DNA of 64,000 nt from Actinomycetes bacterium (GCA_037141255.1 JBAXCX010000001.1:67-64066), one strand, 5' to 3'. Shown: positions 4,044-17,273, numbered from the stretch's first letter. The notes: generated by a model not told the origin, from the sequence alone. Program-made: numbers and translations.

Positions 4044-5576
4044 CTATCGACCAGAAACATCCGAGTTGGCCGTATGCGGGCGGGTGATTGTGGGCAACAG
4101 GGCCCGCAGGGAGCGCTCGCGGAGGCATCCAAGCCAGACACCCGCACCGTAAGACATGTCATCCAAAAGCCCGAGCCCCACAAACTGAAGCGCTTCAGAA
4201 AGCGAGGAAGCCCGAGAGGGGTGTTTGGTCCCAGACAACTCTGACAACTCAGACAACTCAGAGCGTTGGTCTCGCAGCGAATCGAGGGCCGTGACCACCA
4301 CTGCCGCAGCTACAGCAGAGCGAGCACGAGAACTCAGCACCGCAGCCGGAACTGCCACCGGCCACCAGACTCGTTGAACGCTGCGAGCGAGCTGCGCACC
4401 AGCACCGAGGTGGCCGCCAATTCCAAGGCGCAAAACCTCGGAAATGGGAACCTCTGGCAACTTCTTGTGCAACATCCACGTGGTGCCAAGTCCAAGCGTT
4501 GCTCCCAAGCCGAGATGGCCCGCAGCCACAAGGCCCCAGACCGCCGCGCTCCAAGGCGAGAGAATCACGGGCGCGACCTTGCCGGGATGAGCCTGATCAA
4601 GCGCAGCGGCCGAGGTTCCGTATGCGACGCGTTGTTGCATCCAGGTTCGCAGGGCTGATCGGGTCTCGTGATACACCACAGATCGAGGGTCGTACCTAAC
4701 TCGGGCGCCTTGTTCCACGAGTCGCCAGATCAGGTCCACATCTTCTCCCACCAACAGTGCTGGGTTAAACCCGCCCGCTTGACGAACCACTTCGGTACGC
4801 ATCAGCACCGCAGCGCTCGGCACATACGACACCCGAGTGCCTGCAGAAACTCGACCAGTTTGTACTCCCAAGTCAAGGGGCGAGCGGTGTGATTCATACA
4901 ACTCAAGCGCAGTCTGGGAACCGACAGCAGTCATTCCTGGCACTGCCGCGATCCGAGGCGCTGCAGCGGCCACGGATGGGTCACCGAGCTGCGAAATCAG
5001 TGGATCTAGCCAACCGGGTGTGACCGAGCAGTCCGAATCCACGAACGCCACGAGTGCAGTTGAAACCTGACCAAGACCCAGATTTCGGGCCTGAGCCGGA
5101 CCGGCAGACTCCTCGCACCGAATCACTTGAATCGACGGTAATCGCCGATCAGCAATCTGGACCTCGAACGGCTCTGCAGACCCATCATCGACAATGATGA
5201 TCTCTACGAGATGTGCAACTCCTGTGCCAGCAGCAGTCGCGAGGGATGCCAACAAGCGCTCCACGCCAGCCGCGCGATCACGCACCGGCACCACCAGTGT
5301 TACCTCTTCCGAAGGCCAAGCCCCAGCGAGCAGGTCTGGCTCGGGGTGTACGACTCCCGCGTCGATCCAGCGTGAGATGAGTGCCGACTCAGCGGTGCTC
5401 GCAAAAAATGGGGCTCGTGATTCGAGGCGATCCATAAGCGCTGCGCCGGCCGGAGTCAGCGAGAAGAACCGAATGGGAGAACCGCCGAGCAAGAGCTTGC
5501 CACGGTGACCAAAGCGTCGCACCGAAGGGTCACAAGCAAAAGCTGGAACGCTCTGCGCCGACGGAGCTTGAGTCAC
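4044..5576 (-). CDS. mftF: Mycofactocin glycosyltransferase MftF (GT2)
   Basis: LLLGGSPIRF N-terminus, IIVDDGS, FVDSD, YESHRSPLDLG, VSYVPSAA, GEDVDLIWRL, YGTSAAAL, DDMSYGAGVW; cluster context. Confidence 0.92.
   Translation of the reverse strand: MTQAPSAQSVPAFACDPSVRRFGHRGKLLLGGSPIRFFSLTPAGAALMDRLESRAPFFASTAESALISRWIDAGVVHPEPDLLAGAWPSEEVTLVVPVRDRAAGVERLLASLATAAGTGVAHLVEIIIVDDGSAEPFEVQIADRRLPSIQVIRCEESAGPAQARNLGLGQVSTALVAFVDSDCSVTPGWLDPLISQLGDPSVAAAAPRIAAVPGMTAVGSQTALELYESHRSPLDLGVQTGRVSAGTRVSYVPSAAVLMRTEVVRQAGGFNPALLVGEDVDLIWRLVEQGARVRYDPRSVVYHETRSALRTWMQQRVAYGTSAAALDQAHPGKVAPVILSPWSAAVWGLVAAGHLGLGATLGLGTTWMLHKKLPEVPISEVLRLGIGGHLGAGAQLARSVQRVWWPVAVPAAVLSSRARSAVAAAVVVTALDSLRDQRSELSELSELSGTKHPSRASSLSEALQFVGLGLLDDMSYGAGVWLGCLRERSLRALLPTITRPHTANSDVSGR
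4232..4258. repeat. 3 x 9-nt in-frame tandem repeat in mftF (SELSELSEL)
   Basis: cagacaact/ctgacaact/cagacaact. Confidence 0.7.
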
Positions 5577-6277
5577 GATTCTCTTTGCCCGCGCCAGTCA
5601 GCAACGAAGCCTTGCAGGTCGAAAAGCAGCTCAGCACATACCCGAGCGCCTTCCTCTGCAGTTGCATCACGGGGGTCGCCGAGCACACCATTAGGCGTGA
5701 TGGCTGCCAGGCCTTCGGTGAGAACCTTCGGTGCAATGTCTCGCCAGCGATCGGTGCTACCAACCTCAAGGCGTTCCGTGCGAACGCAGGCAGGATCGAG
5801 ATGTAGCAAGATGGATGTCTCGGTTCTTCCGGCATGGGAGTCGCCACCGGCGACTTGGGGGTTCCACACTGCAGCATCACGAGACTCAAGTCTGAGTTTC
5901 GTAATCGCGGCGGCCACGGCAGCGATGTTTCCGCCATGGCCGTTCACGAAGAGCACCGCAGCAAAGGGCCCAACCCCGGTCGAGGGCAAGGCAGAACGAA
6001 CAAGTTCAATGATGACCGACTCCAGCACTGCGCTACCGATCGATAGCGTGCCGGCAAACCCCTGATGCTCCCCCGAGGCTGCGATGGTTACCGGTGGGGC
6101 AATCACGAGACCCGGACGTAACTGAGCAAGTTGATCAGAGAGCCAACTTGCGATTCGTTGGTCAGTGTCAACGGGTAGGTGCGGACCATGCTGCTCACAA
6201 CTTCCGAGAGGTACCACGAGCAGCGAATCTGGTGGCACCTCAGGCCATGCAAGTTGCGCCAAATAGGTGGCAGCCAT
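5573..6277 (-). CDS. mftE: Mycofactocin peptidase MftE (creatininase family)
   Basis: PLGSCEQHGPHLPVDTD, ASGEHQGFAGTLSIG, VNGHGGN, DSHAGRTETS, PNGVLGDP. Start ATG 6277, 1 nt after the upstream stop. Confidence 0.92.
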   Translation of the reverse strand: MAATYLAQLAWPEVPPDSLLVVPLGSCEQHGPHLPVDTDQRIASWLSDQLAQLRPGLVIAPPVTIAASGEHQGFAGTLSIGSAVLESVIIELVRSALPSTGVGPFAAVLFVNGHGGNIAAVAAAITKLRLESRDAAVWNPQVAGGDSHAGRTETSILLHLDPACVRTERLEVGSTDRWRDIAPKVLTEGLAAITPNGVLGDPRDATAEEGARVCAELLFDLQGFVADWRGQRES

Positions 6278-6278
6278 C

Positions 6279-7166
6279 TCAGGCCGGAGGGGTTTGTTCG
6301 AGGTAGCCCCAAGCAACAAGTTGCGTGAGTACTGCTTCGGCAGCCTGCTCCGGGTCTAACACCAGCGTGCGTGATGCGCTGCTATGAGTCTGAGCCCCCG
6401 TGAGTTCAACAATTCTGCTGAGTGCATCCTCGCCTACTGGCGGCGGTAACACACGAGACCTTGGACGCCAGGGCCGCAGGCGATATATCTCTGCTGCTGC
6501 GATGGGCTGTGAAGAACGGACTTCGATGGTCTTGTTTTTGGCATCAAGGGTTGCAGCAAGTGAGGAGCGGCGAAGGTCAGCGACTGAACCTTCAACAGAA
6601 ACAACAGCCGGGGTGGTAACAATCAAGCGCTCACGACGGCCACCGTCGAGACGACGTGTGGCTTCTAGATGACGCGGCTGAGTTGGTTTCAGCTCAATCA
6701 GCCCGAGGGCCTGCGCAGATCCAAGCTCGTGAGCAAGAAATGCTGGCACCGAACCAGAGCCCCGGTCCGCGCTCACATCTCCACAAATCACGAGTTGTGC
6801 ATCGAGTGCGAGCGGCCTCAGTTCAGCTGCGAGCAGCTCTGCCACTTCTGCACTACTGCGTTGTTCTGCAAGGTCAAGGCGCACCACGCGAGACACACCC
6901 GCGGCGAAGAACTCGTACAGAGACTCCTCGGCATCTGCAGTAGCTGCACACAAGACGGTGACCGAACTTGGCGTTCCTGCTTGGGCCCAGGCCTCGGCAA
7001 TGCGCAACGCAGACTCGACGGCGGCAAAGTCTGAGCTCGAAATCCCCGAACTGCGCGGCCGTATCTCAACAGAACCATGAAGGGGATCAATCTCGGGGCG
7101 AAGCTCAGCCCACTTCACGCAAGCAACAATATTCATCGAGCCTGCGTTCGCCGATGGAGCGTTCAT
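6279..7166 (-). CDS. Electron transfer flavoprotein beta subunit (FixA/EtfB-like), mycofactocin-associated
   Basis: MNIVACVKW, CGDVSADRGSGSVPAFLA, ATRRLDGGRRERL. Start 7166 or 7136. Confidence 0.85.
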   Translation of the reverse strand: MNAPSANAGSMNIVACVKWAELRPEIDPLHGSVEIRPRSSGISSSDFAAVESALRIAEAWAQAGTPSSVTVLCAATADAEESLYEFFAAGVSRVVRLDLAEQRSSAEVAELLAAELRPLALDAQLVICGDVSADRGSGSVPAFLAHELGSAQALGLIELKPTQPRHLEATRRLDGGRRERLIVTTPAVVSVEGSVADLRRSSLAATLDAKNKTIEVRSSQPIAAAEIYRLRPWRPRSRVLPPPVGEDALSRIVELTGAQTHSSASRTLVLDPEQAAEAVLTQLVAWGYLEQTPPA

Positions 7167-7189
7167 GAACCTGTCTTCACCTTCGGGAA

Positions 7190-7489
7190 TCATGAGGCAT
7201 GAAACACAACGCCATGGCCGCCCTCGGGGTAGGACCAGGTGATTGCGCCCTCTTCGTTGCACACCATGTAGCAGGTGCCGCACTCAAAGCAGAGTTCGTA
7301 GTTGAACAAAATCCCGCCATCAGCAGTCGGGACGAACAGATTCGCAGGACAGGCCGTGATACAGCCCCGAGTTGAACAGTCTGCGCACTTCTCTCCATCC
7401 ACCGTGATGTGAGCCTGTTCATGAACGCGAAACTCAACCGAGCTCATGCGGGATTCAAAGCTGATCTCTGGGTAAGCCTCTGAACTCAT
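7190..7489 (-). CDS. fixX: FixX-like ferredoxin
   Basis: CADCSTRGCITACPA and CFECGTCYMVC...WSYPEGGHGV; 4-nt overlap with fixC. Confidence 0.88.
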   Translation of the reverse strand: MSSEAYPEISFESRMSSVEFRVHEQAHITVDGEKCADCSTRGCITACPANLFVPTADGGILFNYELCFECGTCYMVCNEEGAITWSYPEGGHGVVFHAS

Positions 7490-8784
7490 CCGAACGTCCT
7501 CAGGGCTTTCACTCCTTGAGAGATGGCATCACGCAGCTTGAGATTATTGAGCTTCATCTGAGCCCGAATAATTTTACGCAACCCCGGTTTTGGCTCGGGA
7601 TTGGTCACGGTGAACAGTTGCTCCATCACCCCACAGGCAATTCTCGGCAACTGCTGTTGCGCTAGATCACTCATGATTAAATGCGGTGCCTCTTTCAGTT
7701 TGCGATGGTCCGACAACACGAAGTTCGCATCTAAACGGCGGCGATAGTCCTGCAGGCCGGCGGTCGAACTGTCGCGGCGTTGCACGGCACGAGCGGCGGC
7801 TTGCCCCGCAGCAGCACCCGAGCCAATTGCAAAGTTGACTCCTTCAAGCCAGATCCCTGCAGCCAAACACATCGCAGCGGCATCACCTGCCACGAGGATT
7901 CCGTCACCGATCAGTTCGGGCATCATCTTGTAGCCCGCCTCGGGAATGAGATGCGCTGAGTACTCCTTGACGTCACCGCCCTCAATCAGCGGGGCGATCG
8001 CCGGGTGCACCTTGAGCTCAGCAAGGATCTCTTCTGGGCGGCGACCACACTTGGCGAGTTGGGGCAGGGAGAGTACCAATCCAAGCGCCAGACTCTCGGC
8101 GTTGGTGTACAAAAAACCGCCGCCGGGAACCGTGCCTGTGCAGCCGATAATTTCTATATCTACTCCGTGATTTCCGCGTACGGCAAAGCGCTCATCGATG
8201 ACTTCACGGGGCAGCGCAATGGTCTCTTTCACCCCGAGGGTGTAGTTGGCTGGGTCTGAAGGTGGGTACAGGCCAGCCTCCTTTGCAAGAAACGAGTTCA
8301 CGCCATCACAACAGATCACGACCTCGGCCGTCAGGTTGCCATCAGGTCGATCAGTGCTCACCCCAACCACGCGCTGCCCGTCTCTCAACAGCCCTGTAGC
8401 AGTGGTGGAACAAACCAGAACTGCTCCGGCTTCCTCGGCTTTGGATGCTAGCCAAGCATCAAAATCAGGACGGAATGCCGTTGCACCGTTGTACGGGGCC
8501 TCACCCCAGGCATTGGAACGAAAATCAACAGTGACGGCTTGGCTTGACGTCATCAACATGGTGGAGCGGCGAGTCACCCAGCGCTGGATGGGGGCCTCCT
8601 CCCACCATCGTGGAATCAAGTTGTCGAGCACGCGACCATAAATGACGCCTCCGTACATATTCTTGGATCCCGGAAACGGTCCTCGCTCAAGAAGACACAC
8701 GGACCGGCCGGCTCGCGCTATCTCAAGCGCAGCAGCAGACCCGGCGGGGCCAGCGCCAACCACAATGACATCAAACTCAGGCAT
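7486..8784 (-). CDS. fixC: FixC-like ETF:quinone oxidoreductase (FAD)
   Basis: GAGPAG, LERGPFPGSKNMYGG, GGGFLYTN, EYSAHLIPEAG, VAGDAA. Confidence 0.88.
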   Translation of the reverse strand: MPEFDVIVVGAGPAGSAAALEIARAGRSVCLLERGPFPGSKNMYGGVIYGRVLDNLIPRWWEEAPIQRWVTRRSTMLMTSSQAVTVDFRSNAWGEAPYNGATAFRPDFDAWLASKAEEAGAVLVCSTTATGLLRDGQRVVGVSTDRPDGNLTAEVVICCDGVNSFLAKEAGLYPPSDPANYTLGVKETIALPREVIDERFAVRGNHGVDIEIIGCTGTVPGGGFLYTNAESLALGLVLSLPQLAKCGRRPEEILAELKVHPAIAPLIEGGDVKEYSAHLIPEAGYKMMPELIGDGILVAGDAAAMCLAAGIWLEGVNFAIGSGAAAGQAAARAVQRRDSSTAGLQDYRRRLDANFVLSDHRKLKEAPHLIMSDLAQQQLPRIACGVMEQLFTVTNPEPKPGLRKIIRAQMKLNNLKLRDAISQGVKALRTFG

Positions 8785-9788
8785 CAGACCGGAGCCGTTC
8801 TCTGCGGATCTTGAGAGGAAACTAAGCGAGCCTGGAGAATCTGCAGCGTCTCATTTGCGTCGGCTACCAACGCTAAATCTGCAAGGTCCATCATGGGGCA
8901 ATGTTGGTCCAGATTGATGCTGATGATATGAGCAGGCTGCCCTAATCCGGCGGTGTGCTGCACCGCGCCAGATACGCCGAAGGCTATGTAGAGCTCTGGA
9001 TCTACAACCACTCCGGTGGTGCCAATCTGGCGAGTATGGCCAATCCATCCGCGGTCAGTGATCACTCGCGTAGCTCCGGCGGAGGCATCAAGCAACGCAG
9101 CAACCTGAGCCAACTGATCAAATCGCTCAGCCGAATCGAGACCGGCGCCACCGCCAAGGATTCTCGGCGACTCCGAAAGGTCCATGGTAGAGACATCCGG
9201 TGGGAGCAGTTCGGTCACCTCGGCGTCTCGAATAACTGACTCGGCTGGAGGCGGGGTGACGAACTGCACCTGCGGGCTAGGGCCATGGGGAGGCGCTACA
9301 CCGCGAACTCCCGGTTGCAGAGTGACCACAACCGAGCCCGTCACGAGGTGCTCGGCCAAGACACGACCGCCATAGCGAATGGTAGACACGCTTTGAGCGG
9401 TGATCTCCATGGCACCCGCCAGGAGCGGTCGCTCAAGGGCTGCAGCGATTCGGGGTGCAAGGTCACGTCCATCTGGGGATGCGGGCAGCAGCACCACAGT
9501 CTCGTTACGAAGCAACGGGGCCAAACGTTGCGCCCACTCCCCTGGCGAGAACTCAGGCGTCTCCCAAGCTTGAAGCCAAGTCGCGATTCCAGCGAGTGCT
9601 TCTGCAGCTTCGAGGGCACCTTCACCGACGAGCAATGCGCGGCCCTCAGCCTCGGCCACCACCTCGGCGCCACCGCTTGGAAGAACTCCCGCCCGGATGG
9701 GAACAAGAGCAAGAGTTGCAGACATGTTTGAAAGAGTAATGCTCAACTCGTGATTCTCCCCAAGCACACGGTGAGCAACCCGACTCAT
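8784..9788 (-). CDS. Electron transfer flavoprotein alpha subunit (FixB/EtfA-like), mycofactocin-associated
   Basis: GRDLAPRIAA, GGGAG, GATR, RQIGTTG, YIAFGVSGAVQHTAGL. Alternative start 9726. Confidence 0.9.
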   Translation of the reverse strand: MSRVAHRVLGENHELSITLSNMSATLALVPIRAGVLPSGGAEVVAEAEGRALLVGEGALEAAEALAGIATWLQAWETPEFSPGEWAQRLAPLLRNETVVLLPASPDGRDLAPRIAAALERPLLAGAMEITAQSVSTIRYGGRVLAEHLVTGSVVVTLQPGVRGVAPPHGPSPQVQFVTPPPAESVIRDAEVTELLPPDVSTMDLSESPRILGGGAGLDSAERFDQLAQVAALLDASAGATRVITDRGWIGHTRQIGTTGVVVDPELYIAFGVSGAVQHTAGLGQPAHIISINLDQHCPMMDLADLALVADANETLQILQARLVSSQDPQRTAPV

Positions 9789-9789
9789 C

Positions 9790-11778
9790 TCAGCGGATTG
9801 CGGCGACGCGATCGGCTGAAGAAATCGCAGCTCCCACTCGCTCGCCCTCGATTACTGCTGAGTGGGCGCGCCGCGGAGCCACTGCGTCCCCGGCTCGATA
9901 CACGTCTATTCCTGCAGCCTTCAGCTCAAAGTACAGGTCATCTACTGGGTCAGCGGGCAGCGCTAGCACAAGCCAATCGGGCTCTCGGCTGAGCGACTCT
10001 CCGGTGGGATGATGCTGAAGCTGAACGGTATGACCCTCAATGCCCATAACACCAGAATTTGTGGTCTGCACAATTCCTTTGGAGCCCGCGCGGATCCACC
10101 AGTTCTCCATATCTAAGGTGATTCCCAAGTCCTGGCCGACCACCATGCCAGGGGTGATCACCTCTACTTTGCAGCCACGGTCAGCAAGTAGTTCGGCAAC
10201 AGAGGTGGCGTGATGAAAACCAATCTCATCGATCACGACAACGTCGCCCTCGGGGTGAACCCTGCCGGACAGAACGTCACGCACATCCACGATCCAGCCA
10301 ACTCCGCCAGCTAGATCCTCGGGCATCCAGTACGGAGTGGATGGCTGAGCGCCAGTGGCAATGATCACGGTTGACACACCGCGTCGCTCCACCTCCGCGG
10401 CAGTTACCGTCAGCTCGTACTCGAACTCAACACCGAGCCGACCGCACTCGTGGAGTTGGTTGCGCACCAGATCACCGAACTCCGCACGGTTGGGCACCGA
10501 GGCCGCCAAACGAACTTGTCCACCAGCGGCAGATTCTCGCTCGCAAACCGTCACATGGTGGCCGTTGCGCGCTGCAGCAATTGCCGCTTGCATTCCCGCT
10601 GGGCCGGCTCCCACAACAAGCACTTTGCGTCCAACACTCACCGTCTGAGCCAGACCCACACCCTGAGACTCGCGGCCGGTGCGCGGATTCTCGATGCATC
10701 CCAACCACCGGTTGAGCCCCATACGCCCCACGCACTCTTGATTGCAAGACAAACACAAGCGGGTGTCATCGGTGAAACCCGCCTTTGCCTTCCGAACAAA
10801 ATCCGGGTCGGCAATCTGCCCTCGGACGACCCCAACAAGATCACAGAACCCTTCGCTCAGGGCTCGCTCTGCTTGAAGGGGATCTTTGAATCGACCCACA
10901 CCCACCACTGGCAACTCAACCGCAGCGCGCAATGCCGCCGGAATGAACATGGCATAGCCAGGCGGGATATGCATAGACGCTTCGATCATGAACAGCGAGG
11001 CGGTGGCCACACCGATTGAGGTATTGATGTAATCGACCTGCCCGGTGGCTTCCACCATCTTCGCCACTTCAACGGCTTCGTCAATAGTGGTTCCACCCTC
11101 GATGAGTTCATCGCCGCAGAGGCGAACTCCGAGAGCCAATTCGGAGCCGATTTCGGCGCGAACTGCTGCAATAATCTCGATCAAGATGCGGGCGCGGTTC
11201 TCGAGCGAACCTCCGTAATCGTCGGTGCGCAGGTTTGTAGCGGGTGACAAGAACCCGCGCACGATCGAGGAGTGAGAGCACTGCAATTCCACTCCATCGA
11301 ATCCACCCTCCACGCAATGCCCGGCGACTAATGCGTACGAGGCAACGATCTGAGCTATCTCTGCTGAGTCAACGGCTTTGGGGACTTCTCGGAAGAGCGG
11401 ATCGGCAACGGCAGAAGGAGCCCAAACCGGCAGCCGCGAATACATCGAGGAGGCTTGACCGCCGTTGTGATTGATCTGCGCAAAAATCGGCACACGATAC
11501 CGGTGCACAGCATCAGTTATTCGGCGATACCCAGGAATCACCTCGCGATGAAACCCGTGAATCAGTTTCTCGTAGGGCCAATCGGTGGGATGGGTTGAAT
11601 GCTCTTCGGTGATGATGAGCCCCGCACCACCCTTAGCTCGCTCGGCGTAGTACGCGGCGTGTTGCTCCGTTGGAAGCCCGCCTTCGGCGTAGTTCGTGAG
11701 ATGTGCAGAAAAAACAATGCGATTACGCACGGTGACCGGACCCAATTGCAGCGGGGTCCAGATAATCTGCTCAGTCAT
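9790..11778 (-). CDS. Mycofactocin system FadH/OYE family oxidoreductase 2 (FMN, [4Fe-4S], FAD/nucleotide domain)
   Basis: NRIVFSAHLTNYA, TEEHSTHPTDWPYEK, intact CLSCNQEC-x11-C, VVGAGPAG. Confidence 0.9.
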   Translation of the reverse strand: MTEQIIWTPLQLGPVTVRNRIVFSAHLTNYAEGGLPTEQHAAYYAERAKGGAGLIITEEHSTHPTDWPYEKLIHGFHREVIPGYRRITDAVHRYRVPIFAQINHNGGQASSMYSRLPVWAPSAVADPLFREVPKAVDSAEIAQIVASYALVAGHCVEGGFDGVELQCSHSSIVRGFLSPATNLRTDDYGGSLENRARILIEIIAAVRAEIGSELALGVRLCGDELIEGGTTIDEAVEVAKMVEATGQVDYINTSIGVATASLFMIEASMHIPPGYAMFIPAALRAAVELPVVGVGRFKDPLQAERALSEGFCDLVGVVRGQIADPDFVRKAKAGFTDDTRLCLSCNQECVGRMGLNRWLGCIENPRTGRESQGVGLAQTVSVGRKVLVVGAGPAGMQAAIAAARNGHHVTVCERESAAGGQVRLAASVPNRAEFGDLVRNQLHECGRLGVEFEYELTVTAAEVERRGVSTVIIATGAQPSTPYWMPEDLAGGVGWIVDVRDVLSGRVHPEGDVVVIDEIGFHHATSVAELLADRGCKVEVITPGMVVGQDLGITLDMENWWIRAGSKGIVQTTNSGVMGIEGHTVQLQHHPTGESLSREPDWLVLALPADPVDDLYFELKAAGIDVYRAGDAVAPRRAHSAVIEGERVGAAISSADRVAAIR

Positions 11779-11814
11779 GGTTCTAACTTAGATCGGGAGC
11801 AGGCTCCGACCGAA

Positions 11815-12192
11815 TCAGTGAGACTCGGAGGAGCGACGACGTCCAATCAGAATCGAAGTCAGTCCTGCAACTGAAGACACCGCTGCTGCTGTTCCGCCAG
11901 CGACTGCAGCCACTCGCCCCCACAGAACCCGACCTTTTGATCCGTCAAGAAGCCCCGTCACCTTCCGATGCGAATCCACGAGCACTTCGCCAATTGGCTC
12001 CAAGCCAAAACCGATGAACTTGCCGTTGCGTACATGTCCGAACATGCCACCGGGCAAAGCAACAGCTACGTCGTCATGGCTTCGGAACATCCCGTTCGCG
12101 GACTTAGCTAATTCCACCGCGTTCTGGATCGTTCGTTCAAGTCCCGAACTCGTTGTTGAGATGGTCTCGCTGAGTACCGATGCTGCTGCCAT
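11815..12192 (-). CDS. Hypothetical protein with C-terminal hydrophobic tail
   Basis: Strong RBS (AGGAGG) 7 nt before ATG; fills the gap between the two OYE genes; Ala/Val/Gly tail followed by RRR. Confidence 0.7.
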   Translation of the reverse strand: MAAASVLSETISTTSSGLERTIQNAVELAKSANGMFRSHDDVAVALPGGMFGHVRNGKFIGFGLEPIGEVLVDSHRKVTGLLDGSKGRVLWGRVAAVAGGTAAAVSSVAGLTSILIGRRRSSESH

Positions 12193-12267
12193 TATGTTTC
12201 CTCCTGAGCGACTTCAAAATCCCGACTTTGCCCGTCTCGGGTTCTTATGCACAAGACCCGCCTAGTG

Positions 12268-12295
12268 AGGGTAGCGGCACAACGCCACAAGTCAA
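12268..12295 (-). promoter_or_regulatory. Sigma-70/SigA-type promoter for the 125-aa gene
   Basis: Minus strand TTGACT-16 nt-TACCCT. Confidence 0.55.
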
Positions 12296-12318
12296 CAGGT
12301 GAATGTCTAGCGATTCGC

Positions 12319-14319
12319 TCAGCCCAAGGCAATCGCTGCTCGTCGGCCCTCGAGAACAGCTTCGTAAATCGACCGTGGAGCAACGCAATCCCCCACACTG
12401 TTGGCCTGTACGAGCGAGGAATGAGCGAGTTCTAAGCCGAGGGCATCATTTGGCAGGCGGTGACCCGCGTCAATCAAGCCAGCAACAGGGATCGTCTCCA
12501 TTTTCGCAGAGAAGCGATCCTCAAACGTGGCCAGTTCAGCAGAGATCGAACGAAGCAGCACCCGCAGATGCAGCTGAACTCCGGACTGCAATAAACGAGC
12601 GTTCGCAGGCGCAAGATCGCCGGAACGAGCAAGTTCATTACCCGCGATGTTGTCTTGTGTAGCAAGGTGCACTTCCGTCCCGCGAGCAGCGAGCAGTTCC
12701 GCAACTGCCACTCCGATGGGTCCGCCGATCGGATCCCAGATCACAATTGGCCCATCGGGCAGGGCTTCAGGGTGATTGAGTGCCTCGACTGCCGTGCGGA
12801 CCACCGACCCGGGTTGTTGGTCGTAGCTGCGCAATCCATCTCGCCCGCCAACCGCGACAATGACATGACCATTCAGTTCATCGGCGGCGACAGAATGGTT
12901 GTTGATGAGTTCAACTCCACTGAGTCGGCACTCGGCCTCAAGCCAATCGACCAACAAAGCCAGGCGCTGCCAGCCCGGACCCTTTGAAGCTGTCCGCACC
13001 ATTCCGCCAAAGTTTTCAGCGGCTTCAAACAACCGCACCCGGTGTCCGCGAACTGCTGCGACTCGGGCTGCTTCAAGGCCACCGGGACCACCACCTACGA
13101 CGGTAAGTTCAACTTGGTGCGCAGCCGCAGCCTCGGGGAGCGCATCCTTTGTTTCGTAGCCAGAGAATGGATCTCCCAAGGCCGTCACGATGGGATTGCG
13201 ATTGTCACGGACCTGACTACGTTGATTCGACAAGGTACAGGGTCGAATTCGCGATGGCTGACCTGCTCGCAACTTGGCCACGAGGTCGGCGTCGGAGATT
13301 TGAGCGCGAGTCATCTCGACTGCGTCAGCAACTCCATCTGTCAGCGCCCATTCAGCCTGATCCACATCCACAATCGATCCCTGGGCTGCGACCGCTACGC
13401 GATCCTGAGTGGCTGCGCGCACTTGTTCGCGAACTGCTCGGGTGAGTTCCAGGTTGAACCCAGGAGGCGTATGGCCTCCGGGTCGAGTTGCCGACACCGA
13501 GTAGATCGATCCTCTCACCACGGTGAGCAGATCGATCGGCCCGAGTTGCGGTTCGCAGGCAATCTCTGCAGCTAACCCGGGAGCTTGCTCTGGGGTGATA
13601 CCAGCCCAAGGGGCGAGCTCGTCACAGGACAACCGCAGCGCAAGCAGTTTCTCGTTTCCAATCGAGGAGCGAACCACTGTCAGGAGATCGCGCAGAAAGA
13701 GTCGTCGATCGCCACCCCACTCGTCTGATCGCTGATTTGTCAGCCCGGACAGGAACTGCCGCACCAGCGAGTACTGACCTGCGTTGATCTCAACACCATC
13801 GCAGCCCGATTGCACTGCCAGTTTTGCGGCCTCAGCGAAGCCAGCGATTACTTCGGAGATGTCCTCGAGCTCCATCCACTTGGGAACCTCGCGAGAGTTG
13901 ACCTCGGGAACTCGTGACGGTGCCCAGAGCTCACGCTGGCTCCAATGAGAAGTTCCTTGGCCACCGGCATGGCCGAGTGCAGCGAGCACCAGCGAACCCT
14001 CCGAGGCGCAGGCCTCAACAACGCCGGCCCAGCCCTGTGCACACTGCGCGGCGAGCGGTGCTCGCTCATAAGGCCAATCCGACTCGTGCACCGAGGCCTC
14101 TTCAGTAATGATGACTCCGGCCCCGCCGACAGCTCGACGTTGGTAGTACGCAATATGGGCAGCAGAGATGGAACGTCCCGTTCCCAGATTGGTCTCGTGT
14201 GGGCCAAAAATGATTCGAGTCGGTGCCTGGACGGGGCCGAAGTCGAGTGGTTCAAGAAGTTTCACTCCCCCACTTTGGCTCAGCTGCGCGGACTCTCCCA
14301 AGCCCTCCGAAGTGATCAC
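12319..14319 (-). CDS. Mycofactocin system FadH/OYE family oxidoreductase 1
   Basis: FGPHETNLG, TEEASVHESDWPYERAP, EINAGQYSLVRQFLSGLTN, VRDNRNPIV, VVGGGPGG. The start may be GTG ~14265. Confidence 0.88.
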   Translation of the reverse strand: MITSEGLGESAQLSQSGGVKLLEPLDFGPVQAPTRIIFGPHETNLGTGRSISAAHIAYYQRRAVGGAGVIITEEASVHESDWPYERAPLAAQCAQGWAGVVEACASEGSLVLAALGHAGGQGTSHWSQRELWAPSRVPEVNSREVPKWMELEDISEVIAGFAEAAKLAVQSGCDGVEINAGQYSLVRQFLSGLTNQRSDEWGGDRRLFLRDLLTVVRSSIGNEKLLALRLSCDELAPWAGITPEQAPGLAAEIACEPQLGPIDLLTVVRGSIYSVSATRPGGHTPPGFNLELTRAVREQVRAATQDRVAVAAQGSIVDVDQAEWALTDGVADAVEMTRAQISDADLVAKLRAGQPSRIRPCTLSNQRSQVRDNRNPIVTALGDPFSGYETKDALPEAAAAHQVELTVVGGGPGGLEAARVAAVRGHRVRLFEAAENFGGMVRTASKGPGWQRLALLVDWLEAECRLSGVELINNHSVAADELNGHVIVAVGGRDGLRSYDQQPGSVVRTAVEALNHPEALPDGPIVIWDPIGGPIGVAVAELLAARGTEVHLATQDNIAGNELARSGDLAPANARLLQSGVQLHLRVLLRSISAELATFEDRFSAKMETIPVAGLIDAGHRLPNDALGLELAHSSLVQANSVGDCVAPRSIYEAVLEGRRAAIALG

Positions 14320-14324
14320 ATGTA

Positions 14325-15521
14325 TCAGGCGCGCTGTCGGCGCGTTGGTCGCAGCGTCACAGGAGAAGGCACGGGAACTCCGGGACGAGAGTGGTCTGCG
14401 CTTGAACTCGGCGCAGCGGCCCCGCTCGTTGCCAGTGCAGCTAGATACGGCTCCGCGTTACCAAGCACGCACTCGGGGTCTGGATCGGTGAGTTCCAGAC
14501 CAACAAAAAACTTTGAGGCCATGCAACCACCCTGGCAGGCGTCATAGCTGCCGCAGCTCGTGCAGGCACCCTCACTCTCGGGCTCGCGCAATGACAAGAA
14601 CAAGTCCGACTCACGCCACACCCTCGTGAAGCCACCTTCGTTGCGAATATTTCCTGCAAGAAACTCCTCGTGAATCACGAACGGGCAGGCGTAGACGTCG
14701 CCAACTGGATCGATGAGACAGACCACCCGGCCAGCGCCGCAAAGGTTCAACCCGGGCAGAGCGTCGCCAAGAGCCGAGAGGTGAAAGAAGGAGTCGCCTG
14801 TGAGTACCGTGGGTCGGTCCATGAGCCAGTAATACAGCTCTCGTTGTTGGGCCTGAGTTGGGTGAAGCGCTGCCCAAGAATCGACGCCGCGTCCTGATGG
14901 ACGGAGTCGGGTGACACGAAGTTGCGCTCCGTAGGCGTCGGCAATCGCTTTGAACTCATCGAGCTGGCTGACGTTATGGCGAGTCACCACCAGACTGATT
15001 TTGAACGGGCCGAACTCGGCTGCGGCAAGGTGATCCATGGCCGCACGAGCTGCTGCGAATGACCCCTCCCCTCGAACAAGATCGTTCACCTGAGCGTCTG
15101 CACCATCGATCGAAATCTGAATATCGAGATAATCCATTGCTGCGAGGCGCTCCGCGGCAGCAGCATCGATAAACGTTCCGTTCGTAGAGAACTTCACGCC
15201 CACCTTGTGCGCAGCGGCATACTCCAGAATCTCGAAGAAGTCGGCGCGCAGCATGGGCTCGCCGCCCCCGATGTTGACGTAAAACACTTGGAGGCGCTCA
15301 AGCTCATCGATGACCGCAAAGCACTCCTCGGTGGTCAGCTCCCGAGGGTCTCGACGACCGGAGGAAGACAAACAATGCACGCATGACAAGTTGCACGCGT
15401 AGGTCAACTCCCAGGTCAAACAGATTGGGGCATCCAGACCAAACTTGAACTCCTCGACGAGTGGCCGCGTTGCTGCTGGGGGTTGTGCGGGAACCTTGTC
15501 TCGTTGCTGCTCAAGCTGCAC
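14325..15521 (-). CDS. mftC: Mycofactocin radical SAM maturase MftC
   Basis: GLDAPICLTWELTYACNLSCVHC (CxxxCxxC), GGGEP, SPASM cysteines LCGAGRVVC...ACPF...CTSC...C...GGC...DPEC. Confidence 0.96.
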   Translation of the reverse strand: MQLEQQRDKVPAQPPAATRPLVEEFKFGLDAPICLTWELTYACNLSCVHCLSSSGRRDPRELTTEECFAVIDELERLQVFYVNIGGGEPMLRADFFEILEYAAAHKVGVKFSTNGTFIDAAAAERLAAMDYLDIQISIDGADAQVNDLVRGEGSFAAARAAMDHLAAAEFGPFKISLVVTRHNVSQLDEFKAIADAYGAQLRVTRLRPSGRGVDSWAALHPTQAQQRELYYWLMDRPTVLTGDSFFHLSALGDALPGLNLCGAGRVVCLIDPVGDVYACPFVIHEEFLAGNIRNEGGFTRVWRESDLFLSLREPESEGACTSCGSYDACQGGCMASKFFVGLELTDPDPECVLGNAEPYLAALATSGAAAPSSSADHSRPGVPVPSPVTLRPTRRQRA

Positions 15522-15774
15522 GAATCATCTCCGAAGTTTCAAGTGTGGCTAACGCGATCAAAAAGCTGGGCCACTTGTCCTTCTCGACCCCAACAGCTTC
15601 AAAGACTTGTCGAACGGAATTGTAAGAATCTAACGACTCAACGACGCGCAGCAGATCGGGGTGCTTCAGAAAGGAAAGCTTGCGGGTGTCAAAGCTGTAG
15701 GCCAGGGCCCCAAATCGTTCCGGCCGAAGCGACACATTTGGGCTGAGCTGGTAGCTCGCCTCAAGGTCAATCAC
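15511..15774 (-). CDS. mftB: Mycofactocin chaperone MftB (RRE/PqqD-like)
   Basis: VSLRPERFGALAYSFDTRKLSFLK. GTG 15774 lies 9 nt after a GAGGG RBS; alternative TTG 15783. Confidence 0.93.
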   Translation of the reverse strand: MIDLEASYQLSPNVSLRPERFGALAYSFDTRKLSFLKHPDLLRVVESLDSYNSVRQVFEAVGVEKDKWPSFLIALATLETSEMIRAA

Positions 15775-15786
15775 AAGAACCAACCC

Positions 15787-15942
15787 TCAGTAGACGCCAC
15801 ACATGCCGTCGATGGAGACTTCCTCGACGAGCAATTCTTCGAGGAGGAGCGGTCCATCTTGGTCTGCATCTACCGGTGTCTGATCGACGAGGAGTTCGGA
15901 AGTTCCTTGATCAGTAACTTCGGAGCGTTCATCAATGCTCAT
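15787..15942 (-). CDS. mftA: Mycofactocin precursor peptide MftA (51 aa)
   Basis: Not in the ORF track. Hand translation: MSIDERSEVTDQGTSELLVDQTPVDADQDGPLLLEELLVEEVSIDGMCGVY*, with the canonical IDGMCGVY terminus and a GAGG RBS. Confidence 0.97.
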   Translation of the reverse strand: MSIDERSEVTDQGTSELLVDQTPVDADQDGPLLLEELLVEEVSIDGMCGVY

Positions 15943-16139: not shown

Positions 16140-17273
16140 ATGCCAACCACGACTCGCGCTGCAGTGCTCTGGGAGACCGGAGCTGACTGGAAGATCGAGG
16201 AAGTTCGACTCGATGATCCCAAGGCAAATGATGTGCTCGTCACCATGAAGGCTGCCGGAATGTGTCACTCGGACGACCATGTGGTTACTGGTGACCTCCC
16301 TCTGCCCCTCCCCGTGATCGGCGGACACGAGGGCGCCGGCATCGTCGAAGCAGTCGGACCGGGTGTCACTACCTTGGCTCCAGGAGATCACGTCTCGGTG
16401 TCATTCATCCCCAGCTGCGGTCGATGCAAGTGGTGTTCCACGGGGCGGCAGTACCTCTGCGACGAGGGAGCCAAACTGTTCGACATCGGCATGATGAGCG
16501 ATGGCCGCGAAGCTCACTTTGTGAATAACGCTCAGGGGGACTCTCAAGCAGTGGGAAGATTTGCGCAGGTTGGCACCTTTTCTGAACAAATTCTGGTGAG
16601 CGAGAACTCACTCGTGAAGGTGGAAAAGGACCTGCCCTTCGGCGTGATTGCGTTGGTCTCATGCGGAGTTGCAACAGGGTTTGGATCAGCTACTGAACGT
16701 GCGGGCACCAAACCCGGGGACAACGTTGCAGTAGTGGGAGTGGGAGGCATTGGCATCAACGCGGTCCAAGGGGCTCGCATTGCAGGCGCAAAGCGTGTCA
16801 TCGCGATCGATCCCATTGAGTTCAAGCGAGAGCAAGCCATGGAATTCGGTGCCACGCACACCTTCTCCTCGATCGAGGAGGCCATGCTCGCCATCCCCGA
16901 TCTCACTTGGGGCGAGATGTGTGAGCGAGTCATCCTGTGCCCTGGCGTGATGCACGGAGACATGATTGAACCGGCGCTCGGTCTTACCTCGAAGGGTGGC
17001 ACCCTCGTCATAACGGGGCTTGCCCCGATGCTGGAAAATGATGCTCAGCTGAACGTGTTCATGTTGTCGATGATGAACAAGGAGATCAAGGGAACGGTGT
17101 TTGGTTCTTCTAATCCGCGAGCGATGATTCCCCAACTGCTCTCGATGTACCGAGAAGGTGGACTCAAGCTCGATGAGCTCATCACCACTCGCTATAGCCT
17201 TGATCAGGTGAATCAGGGCTACGCCGATATGGCCAGCGGACGCAACATTCGCGGCGTCATCGACTTCGCCTGA
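16140..17273 (+). CDS. NDMA-dependent (nicotinoprotein) Zn-alcohol dehydrogenase, mycofactocin-associated type
   Basis: GMCHSDDHVVTGD, GGHEGAG, SFIPSCGRCKWC...LCD, LVSCGVATGFGSA, GVGGIG, IDPIEFKRE; divergent from mftA. Confidence 0.85.
   Translation: MPTTTRAAVLWETGADWKIEEVRLDDPKANDVLVTMKAAGMCHSDDHVVTGDLPLPLPVIGGHEGAGIVEAVGPGVTTLAPGDHVSVSFIPSCGRCKWCSTGRQYLCDEGAKLFDIGMMSDGREAHFVNNAQGDSQAVGRFAQVGTFSEQILVSENSLVKVEKDLPFGVIALVSCGVATGFGSATERAGTKPGDNVAVVGVGGIGINAVQGARIAGAKRVIAIDPIEFKREQAMEFGATHTFSSIEEAMLAIPDLTWGEMCERVILCPGVMHGDMIEPALGLTSKGGTLVITGLAPMLENDAQLNVFMLSMMNKEIKGTVFGSSNPRAMIPQLLSMYREGGLKLDELITTRYSLDQVNQGYADMASGRNIRGVIDFA

Follow-up and report, generated by a model that had tools for sequence, protein, structure and literature searches.

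Mycofactocin acquires its redox-active keto-amide when the intermediate AHDP is converted to premycofactocin, a step normally carried out by the O2-using FMN enzyme MftD. How is this step accomplished in a cluster that has no mftD gene? The question is raised by a stretch of 64,000 nucleotides from an Actinomycetes bacterium (GCA_037141255.1, JBAXCX010000001.1:67-64066; "the window" below always means this whole stretch), which contains a mycofactocin (MFT) cluster with six redox genes separating mftC from mftE: two FadH/OYE-type flavoenzymes of about 660 residues (OYE1 and OYE2), the two subunits of an electron transfer flavoprotein (ETF; EtfA and EtfB), and a FixC-like and a FixX-like protein (together FixCX). 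The locus encodes a complete mycofactocin system, and with its OYE/ETF composition it is a regular representative of a cluster type that is catalogued but uncharacterized. We consider it slightly better than an even bet that OYE2, ETF and FixCX carry out the oxidative deamination otherwise performed by MftD and deliver the electrons to quinone. In its full form, to which we would give an even chance, our proposal is that OYE2 and its dedicated ETF/FixCX constitute a non-homologous, quinone-linked, O2-independent premycofactocin synthase (i.e. an AHDP dehydrogenase) that has repeatedly replaced MftD, and that may double as a mycofactocinol:quinone oxidoreductase where MftG is missing.

Distribution of mftD, MftG and the OYE/ETF module

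Judging from the names on close homologs, the host lineage belongs to the Acidimicrobiia, among Microthrixaceae-like metagenome-assembled genomes (MAGs), and the genome itself is a MAG of 269 contigs. Our search bore out the original prediction that no mftD, mftG or mftR gene is present in the window. For mftD the absence extends to the whole 85%-complete MAG, in which TIGR03966 scores 25.7 bits at best (cut-off 471); for MftG it does not, as an MftG-family GMC oxidoreductase (TIGR03970, 471 bits, cut-off 387) is encoded on another contig, C117 (L028:4657-6183, minus strand). This gene is unlinked to the mft cluster and adjoins a gene with a nonribosomal peptide synthetase-like adenylation domain; it is unlikely to be a contamination, because the nearest relative, G720 (OYE2 92% identical), also carries MftG (L118). 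Further contigs of the host genome encode a mycofactocin-coupled short-chain dehydrogenase/reductase (SDR) and a second Zn alcohol dehydrogenase (Zn-ADH).

The distribution of mftD and the module was analyzed in 301 genomes of the class, 56 of which bear mftC. At the curated cut-offs, mftD is found in 33 of the 56 and OYE2 in 21, none of the 33 mftD genomes possessing OYE2; etfA exceeds its cut-off in 19 of the 21, and in the remaining two it is either divided over contigs or narrowly misses the cut-off. A 22nd genome (G289) contains a divergent but complete OYE1-OYE2-etfA-fixC-fixX set adjoining mftC. The two systems occur together in none of the 56 mftC-bearing genomes, and the module is present in a single copy in 22 of the 23 that lack mftD, the exception being one fragmented genome with neither. 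A sample of 401 genomes of the phylum yielded mftD in 32 and OYE2 in 12, with no genome having both (OYE2 in none of the 32). In the four OYE2 genomes from outside the class, the module adjoins mftC and mftD is absent. A further 50 OYE2 genomes, located by way of related loci, likewise yielded no mftD; at least one of them (L088, on the same contig as G071) is counted in the class sample as well. A search of genome contigs with an OYE2 alignment kept 80 of at least 589 loci, was filled by close Acidimicrobiia relatives and thereby covers this class rather than other phyla. Around G414, a search at the family level went through 21 uncultured MAGs a second time and provided no replicate. The replacement of MftD by OYE, ETF and FixCX, one of two roles suggested in the original prediction, has thus gained support that is comparative, not biochemical, and it was not refuted by a co-occurring mftD, since none was found in any OYE2 genome searched (the window's genome, 21 more OYE-type genomes of the class sample, four genomes from other classes and the 50 genomes from related loci).

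A paralog from the alpha-hydroxy-acid-oxidase family (FMN_dh, 250-315 bits) was considered as a hidden MftD and rejected: it occurs in both cluster types and is absent from several OYE-type genomes, including the closed genome G095, which has no alpha-hydroxy-acid-oxidase homolog even at E 1e-20.

The mftC tree follows taxonomy rather than cluster type. Two genomes of one genus, G107 (OYE type) and G008 (mftD type), are sisters with support of 100/98, and so are G175 (OYE type) and G019 (mftD type), which belong to one family (100/100). A PlsY-like and a DedA-like membrane gene occur in the same order in the two congeneric clusters, of which one has the OYE and ETF genes interleaved and the other lacks them, its mftD sitting 200 kb off. 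The tree topology and the shared neighbor genes indicate that the exchange between mftD and the module occurred repeatedly and in place, and that the two types do not represent two old cluster lineages. The core of the MftA precursor, EE[IV]SIDG[ML]CGVY, is identical between mftD-type and OYE-type clusters, and the same AHDP intermediate is therefore expected in both.

Gene arrangement varies among the relatives. PlsY-like and DedA-like genes lie inside the mft cluster of one Acidimicrobiia family in both cluster versions (L016:8690-9280 and 11301-11954; L029:7520-8119 and 6886-7581; L014; L030). Many loci of Ilumatobacteraceae have a DedA-like gene between OYE2 and etfA, and in many members of this family mftABC-OYE1 and OYE2-ETF-mftEF are found at separate loci. 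L052, from one close relative, has the block etfA-fixC-fixX-etfB-mftE in the opposite orientation to OYE1-orf125-OYE2.

The distribution of MftG is different. It is encoded in none of the 33 mftD-type genomes of the class and, among the 22 OYE-type genomes, in that of the window only, i.e. it is absent from the other 55 mftC genomes; it is also missing from the four OYE2 genomes outside the class. The 33 mftD-type relatives are without MftG and without the module alike, while module and MftG coexist in the window's lineage (its own genome and G720). The presence of the module correlates with a lack of mftD and not with a lack of mftG. This bears on the second role suggested in the original prediction, in a form in which it is the only one: OYE2/OYE1 would re-oxidize client-reduced mycofactocin and feed the ETF-FixCX-quinone chain, as a mycofactocinol:quinone oxidoreductase analogous to MftG, and AHDP would be deaminated by another enzyme. 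Some 25% of mftC genomes are without MftG, whose substitute has been left as an open question (Graca et al. 2025, PMC11778925); MftG is missing from most OYE-type genomes that we searched, client dehydrogenases are encoded in the genome and beside the cluster, and ETF with FixCX is a respiratory-type chain, whose FixC scores 244 bits against the FixC of Thermotoga maritima EtfABCX (7koe_C). We nevertheless regard a purely recycling function as unlikely: it leaves the exclusion of module and mftD unexplained, the 33 mftD-type relatives manage without the module although they too lack MftG, MftG accompanies the module in the window's genome and in its nearest relative, and no other candidate deaminase is present in the self-contained plasmid and Saccharopolyspora clusters described below. 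In the window's lineage re-oxidation by the module is also less needed, because MftG is encoded elsewhere in the genome.

OYE2 and its predicted electron acceptors

OYE2 (9790..11778, minus strand; TIGR03997, 954 bits, cut-off 793), the mycofactocin system FadH/OYE family oxidoreductase 2, is our candidate AHDP dehydrogenase. It combines an FMN-binding TIM barrel, a CxxCxxxC..C motif and an ADP-type Rossmann domain without an NAD(P)H loop, which is the architecture of trimethylamine dehydrogenase (TMADH) and histamine dehydrogenase (HADH). The 4Fe-4S cysteines (Cys342/345/349/361) and the first GxGxxG are retained, and His169 occupies the position of the active-site His of HADH; we take it to be the equivalent of His172 in TMADH. 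In the third domain, the site of the Gly-rich NAD(P)H loop reads DEIGFHHA in OYE2 and DDDHYYLG in HADH, and the alignment with FadH ends at residue 484. As the Gly-rich loop is missing, OYE2 appears to have no evident pyridine-nucleotide site and would need a protein redox partner. OYE2 thus shares with TMADH/HADH (PDB 1o94, 3k30) the three-domain FMN/[4Fe-4S]/ADP-type organization, the active-site His and the lack of the NAD(P)H loop, and the likeness extends to ETF, which is encoded beside OYE2 and modeled to dock to it, 1o94 being a structure of TMADH with ETF chains. The differences concern the similarity as such (about 193-196 bits), the covalent-FMN Cys and the classical ETF recognition loop.

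The model of the OYE2-EtfB complex scored 0.69, a mark reached by 58/80 solved complexes and 2/110 mismatched pairs, compared to 0.00 for the best of three controls; part of this score may reflect likeness, because complexes of ETF with TMADH and with medium-chain acyl-CoA dehydrogenase have already been solved. At least 82% of contacts recur between runs, and the partner has a predicted local distance difference test (pLDDT) value of 77 or more. The modeled contact involves a conserved, family-specific C-terminal segment of EtfB (residues 222-249 in the 285-residue form) and not the classical recognition loop. The model supports binding of EtfB by OYE2 and, together with the adjacent ETF genes, makes OYE2 a candidate ETF-reducing amine dehydrogenase.

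The ETF and FixCX genes are all encoded on the minus strand. EtfA (8784..9788; mycofactocin-associated ETF alpha subunit, NF038209, 381 bits, cut-off 240) contains the ETF_alpha FAD domain, and its nearest solved chain is 7koe_B. The FixC-like ETF:quinone oxidoreductase (7486..8784; NF007450, 347 bits, NF007542, 334 bits) and the FixX-like ferredoxin (7190..7489; NF011993, 48 bits) score below the respective NCBIfam equivalog cut-offs, yet they are FixC and FixX homologs by structure-chain match and by motifs: FixX has Fer4 domains and eight Cys residues in two 4Fe-4S motifs, CxxCx4Cx3CP and CxxCxxCx3C. A match of FixC to the DAO family might suggest an amine oxidase; this candidate was rejected, as the N-terminal Rossmann part alone matches DAO and the whole protein matches FixC. 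EtfB (6279..7193; mycofactocin-associated ETF beta subunit, TIGR04503, 239 bits, cut-off 200) probably starts either with the ATG at 7193, which overlaps the fixX stop codon, or with the ATG at 7136. It is very divergent: its matches to the non-bifurcating chains 1efp_B and 1o94_C are weak (30-34 bits), and among the solved chains compared it has no match to bifurcating EtfB. The motif region CGDVSADRGSGSVPAF does not clearly fit either type. The system resembles T. maritima EtfABCX/FixABCX in its FixC, in the FixX-like 2x[4Fe-4S] ferredoxin and in EtfA, and differs from it in the highly divergent EtfB and in the embedding of etfA-fixC-fixX-etfB in a cofactor biosynthesis operon.

These comparisons can also be read in the opposite direction, with ETF/FixCX working like FixABCX/EtfABCX in a reductive or bifurcating module and the OYE proteins acting as FadH/NCR/BaiCD-like reductases that use low-potential electrons on mycofactocin or another substrate. 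The solved structures nearest to OYE2 are indeed those of the reductases 2-naphthoyl-CoA reductase (NCR, 268 bits) and FadH (254 bits), followed by HADH (196 bits) and TMADH (193 bits); its nearest NCBIfam neighbors are BaiCD and bilirubin reductase; and both FixC and EtfA have their closest match in the bifurcating EtfABCX of T. maritima. Still, where FadH, NCR and the OYE ene-reductases have a Tyr as proton donor, OYE2 has Ser171, which aligns with a Tyr of FadH and NCR, presumably the proton donor Tyr166 of FadH. OYE2 has neither this Tyr nor the NADPH-binding third domain that characterize FadH and the ene-reductases, EtfB lacks matches to bifurcating chains, and the exclusion with mftD is not explained, all of which makes a reductive role quite improbable. 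Least probable of all is that OYE1 and OYE2 catabolize an unrelated substrate in a mycofactocin-dependent manner and travel with the cluster like SDR and Zn-ADH (SDR genes are inserted within some clusters, e.g. L035, and OYE2 is at times more than 10 kb from mftC), since such clients are optional and vary in number, whereas the module is single-copy in nearly all mftD-less mftC genomes of the class sample and present in no mftD-bearing genome searched.

Some sources give homologs of OYE2 the names DgcA or Stc2. Both names belong to other amine demethylases of the OYE2 superfamily that are likewise linked to ETF. In locus L036 (G482:C18, 6723-9399) an etfA-like gene is located directly upstream of an OYE2-like Fe-S flavoenzyme with 674 bits to TIGR03997, below the cut-off. 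The genome of L036 has no mftC, and OYE-ETF pairing therefore exists also outside mycofactocin clusters.

Proposed route and accessory proteins

In the route that we propose, MftA, MftB, MftC and MftE should yield AHDP as in mycobacteria, and MftF glycosylates. As a TIM-barrel FMN/[4Fe-4S]/ADP-or-FAD flavoenzyme with no apparent NAD(P)H site, OYE2 would deaminate AHDP at its FMN; two electrons would leave via the [4Fe-4S] cluster to the dedicated ETF, which would pass them through FixC/FixX, as ETF:quinone oxidoreductase, to the membrane quinone pool. The module may additionally oxidize mycofactocinol, a second role that would explain the respiratory-scale electron chain; it is not needed for the data, and an MftG gene is available in the window's lineage. 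Independence from O2 is plausible chemistry but not the sole driver, because aerobic Streptomyces and Saccharopolyspora carry the same module.

Several points weigh against this proposal. For a step that occurs once per molecule, the outlay of six genes plus a quinone-linked chain is large and would fit catalytic recycling better. OYE2 is by sequence slightly nearer to the reductases NCR and FadH than to the amine dehydrogenases HADH and TMADH, and it lacks the Cys for covalent 6-S-cysteinyl FMN (Cys30 of TMADH), having AHL where HADH has PHC. The complex was modeled from OYE2 and EtfB without EtfA, and the C-terminal segment of EtfB that makes the modeled contact may bind EtfA in the real complex. 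The role of OYE2 is proposed from comparison and modeling. The genomes are related, so that the counts overstate independence, and just two or three switches are resolved; the MAG of the window is 85% complete, and for S. erythraea and S. spinosa (see below) the absence of mftD refers to the mft clusters.

OYE1 (12319..14319, minus strand), the mycofactocin system FadH/OYE family oxidoreductase 1, may be an accessory paralog, perhaps a partner subunit of OYE2. Although it passes the cut-off of TIGR03996 (735 bits, cut-off 628), the protein from the window does not have the four-Cys [4Fe-4S] motif of the FadH family: the first Cys is kept and the other three are lost (RPCTLSNQRSQ...TALGDP in place of C..C...C....C). 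The same loss, C..[ST]...S....[SA], is found in the five closest relatives of its Microthrixaceae-like subclade (L038, L039, L040, L042 and L044), but the open reading frame stays intact in all six species. All other OYE1 proteins examined keep the four Cys. In one actinobacterial family OYE1 is absent and OYE2 alone accompanies ETF/FixCX. The lack of OYE1 in some lineages and the loss of its Fe-S ligands in this one point to OYE2 as the core enzyme and to OYE1 as a diverged accessory paralog.

Between OYE1 and OYE2 lies orf125 (11815..12192, minus strand), which encodes a small protein of about 125 residues, made up of the core DDVAVALPGGMFGHVRNGKLIGFGLEPIGDVLVD, then a hydrophobic helix at the C-terminus and RRR. 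Pfam and NCBIfam contain no match to it, and its Atlas neighbors are sub-threshold at most. Orthologous positions in the 15 closest loci are occupied by proteins with 59-94% identity, and more distant clusters lack them; orf125 appears to be a real, lineage-specific protein. Together with MftG on another contig and OYE1 without three Fe-S cysteines, conserved orf125 belongs to the traits specific to this lineage.

Cluster layout, known relatives and significance

The twelve-gene order mftA-mftB-mftC-OYE1-orf125-OYE2-etfA-fixC-fixX-etfB-mftE-mftF on the minus strand, as given in the original prediction, is confirmed, and so is the overlap or abutment of most genes, the exceptions being gaps upstream of orf125 (126 nt) and of OYE2 (36 nt). 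The cluster begins with mftA (15787..15942; TIGR03969, 50.8 bits, cut-off 25), which encodes a precursor peptide of 51 amino acids with the C-terminus EEVSIDGMCGVY (IDGMCGVY). It is followed by mftB for the peptide chaperone (15511..15783; TIGR03967, 98 bits, cut-off 33) and mftC for the radical SAM/SPASM maturase (14325..15521; TIGR03962, 602 bits, cut-off 265; Radical_SAM and SPASM domains), and it ends with mftE for the AHDP-releasing peptidase (5573..6319; TIGR03964, 258 bits, cut-off 172) and mftF for the glycosyltransferase (4044..5576; TIGR03965, 402 bits, cut-off 280). All five genes pass their curated NCBIfam cut-offs, including MftB, MftC and MftF, the invariant trio of mycofactocin clusters (Haft 2011, PMC3023750), and all four curated redox models (TIGR03996, TIGR03997, NF038209, TIGR04503) are passed as well. 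Divergently from mftA, on the plus strand, an N,N-dimethyl-4-nitrosoaniline (NDMA)-dependent, mycofactocin-type Zn-ADH is encoded (16140..17273; TIGR03989, 530 bits, cut-off 440), likely a client enzyme of mycofactocin. This gene and the NCBIfam naming of the module were both missing from the original prediction. Many genes around it in the window concern lipids and acyl-CoA: they encode acyl-CoA ligases, a wax-ester/triacylglycerol synthase, a thiolase-like lipid-transfer protein and a LipQ-like esterase.

The OYE/ETF cluster type is already catalogued in NCBIfam, as OYE1/2 and "mycofactocin-associated" ETF, under family names that carry no function; its gene order is annotated by PGAP on Streptomyces plasmids and is present in Saccharopolyspora spinosa. 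The window differs from these in the loss of three of the four Fe-S cysteines of OYE1 and in the insertion of orf125 between OYE1 and OYE2. With the canonical mftR/mftABCDEF and mftG system of Mycobacterium and Rhodococcus it shares mftA, B, C, E and F, the MftA core and the client Zn-ADH/SDR, whereas mftD and mftR are missing, six redox genes stand between mftC and mftE, and MftG is unlinked.

TIGR03966 is known from most, not all, MFT species (Haft 2011, PMC3023750). In particular, 17 MFT clusters of Saccharopolyspora without mftD and with a TIGR03997 gene of unknown function have been described in the BGCFlow paper (bioRxiv 10.1101/2023.06.14.545018 / PMC11162802). They are of the same type as the window's, with TIGR03966 absent and TIGR03997 present; the paper gives the OYE gene no role and reports neither the ETF/FixCX genes nor a co-occurrence analysis. 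The same complete OYE/ETF-type cluster, with no mftD in it, is present in S. spinosa (L121). In S. erythraea, the type strain of the genus, the methylmycofactocins MMFT-2, MMFT-2H2 and MMFT-3 have been detected (Ellerhorst et al. 2022, PMC9679996); combined with the mftD-less clusters of the genus, this implies that the keto-amide is made without a clustered mftD. A further complete cluster was found on the linear plasmid of Streptomyces sp. NBC_00334 (L117, NZ_CP108009.1, 10472-22152); it is self-contained, and the record as a whole contains no mftD. The placement of the plasmid mftC together with the mftC of an uncultured actinobacterial family (99/100) suggests that the whole OYE/ETF-type cluster has spread horizontally. 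On the plasmid the cluster sits among polyketide, gamma-butyrolactone and SARP regulator genes.

A full-text literature search for mycofactocin with electron transfer flavoprotein found nothing, and none of the MFT papers cited here assigns the OYE/ETF genes to the deamination step or reports the exclusion pattern. The exclusion counts for mftD and the module, the in-place switching, the identical MftA cores, and the features and docking of OYE2 are new.

The biosynthesis of mycofactocin is considered settled, and in the accepted pathway the redox center arises in the O2-dependent step of MftD (PMC8406134, PMC11778925); the MftD step is described as aerobic, and the midpoint potential of premycofactocin is near -255 mV (PMC8406134). 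A direct test of the idea advanced here is possible in S. erythraea, which is in culture and for which MFT measurements exist. If the idea is true, detection rules of the antiSMASH type that require MftD will need to be changed, a problem already raised in the BGCFlow paper. The group of mftD-less, module-carrying organisms comprises at least several hundred species, including cultured Streptomyces, Saccharopolyspora and Amycolatopsis, and these would possess a second, respiration-coupled route to mycofactocin, without O2 and without production of H2O2.

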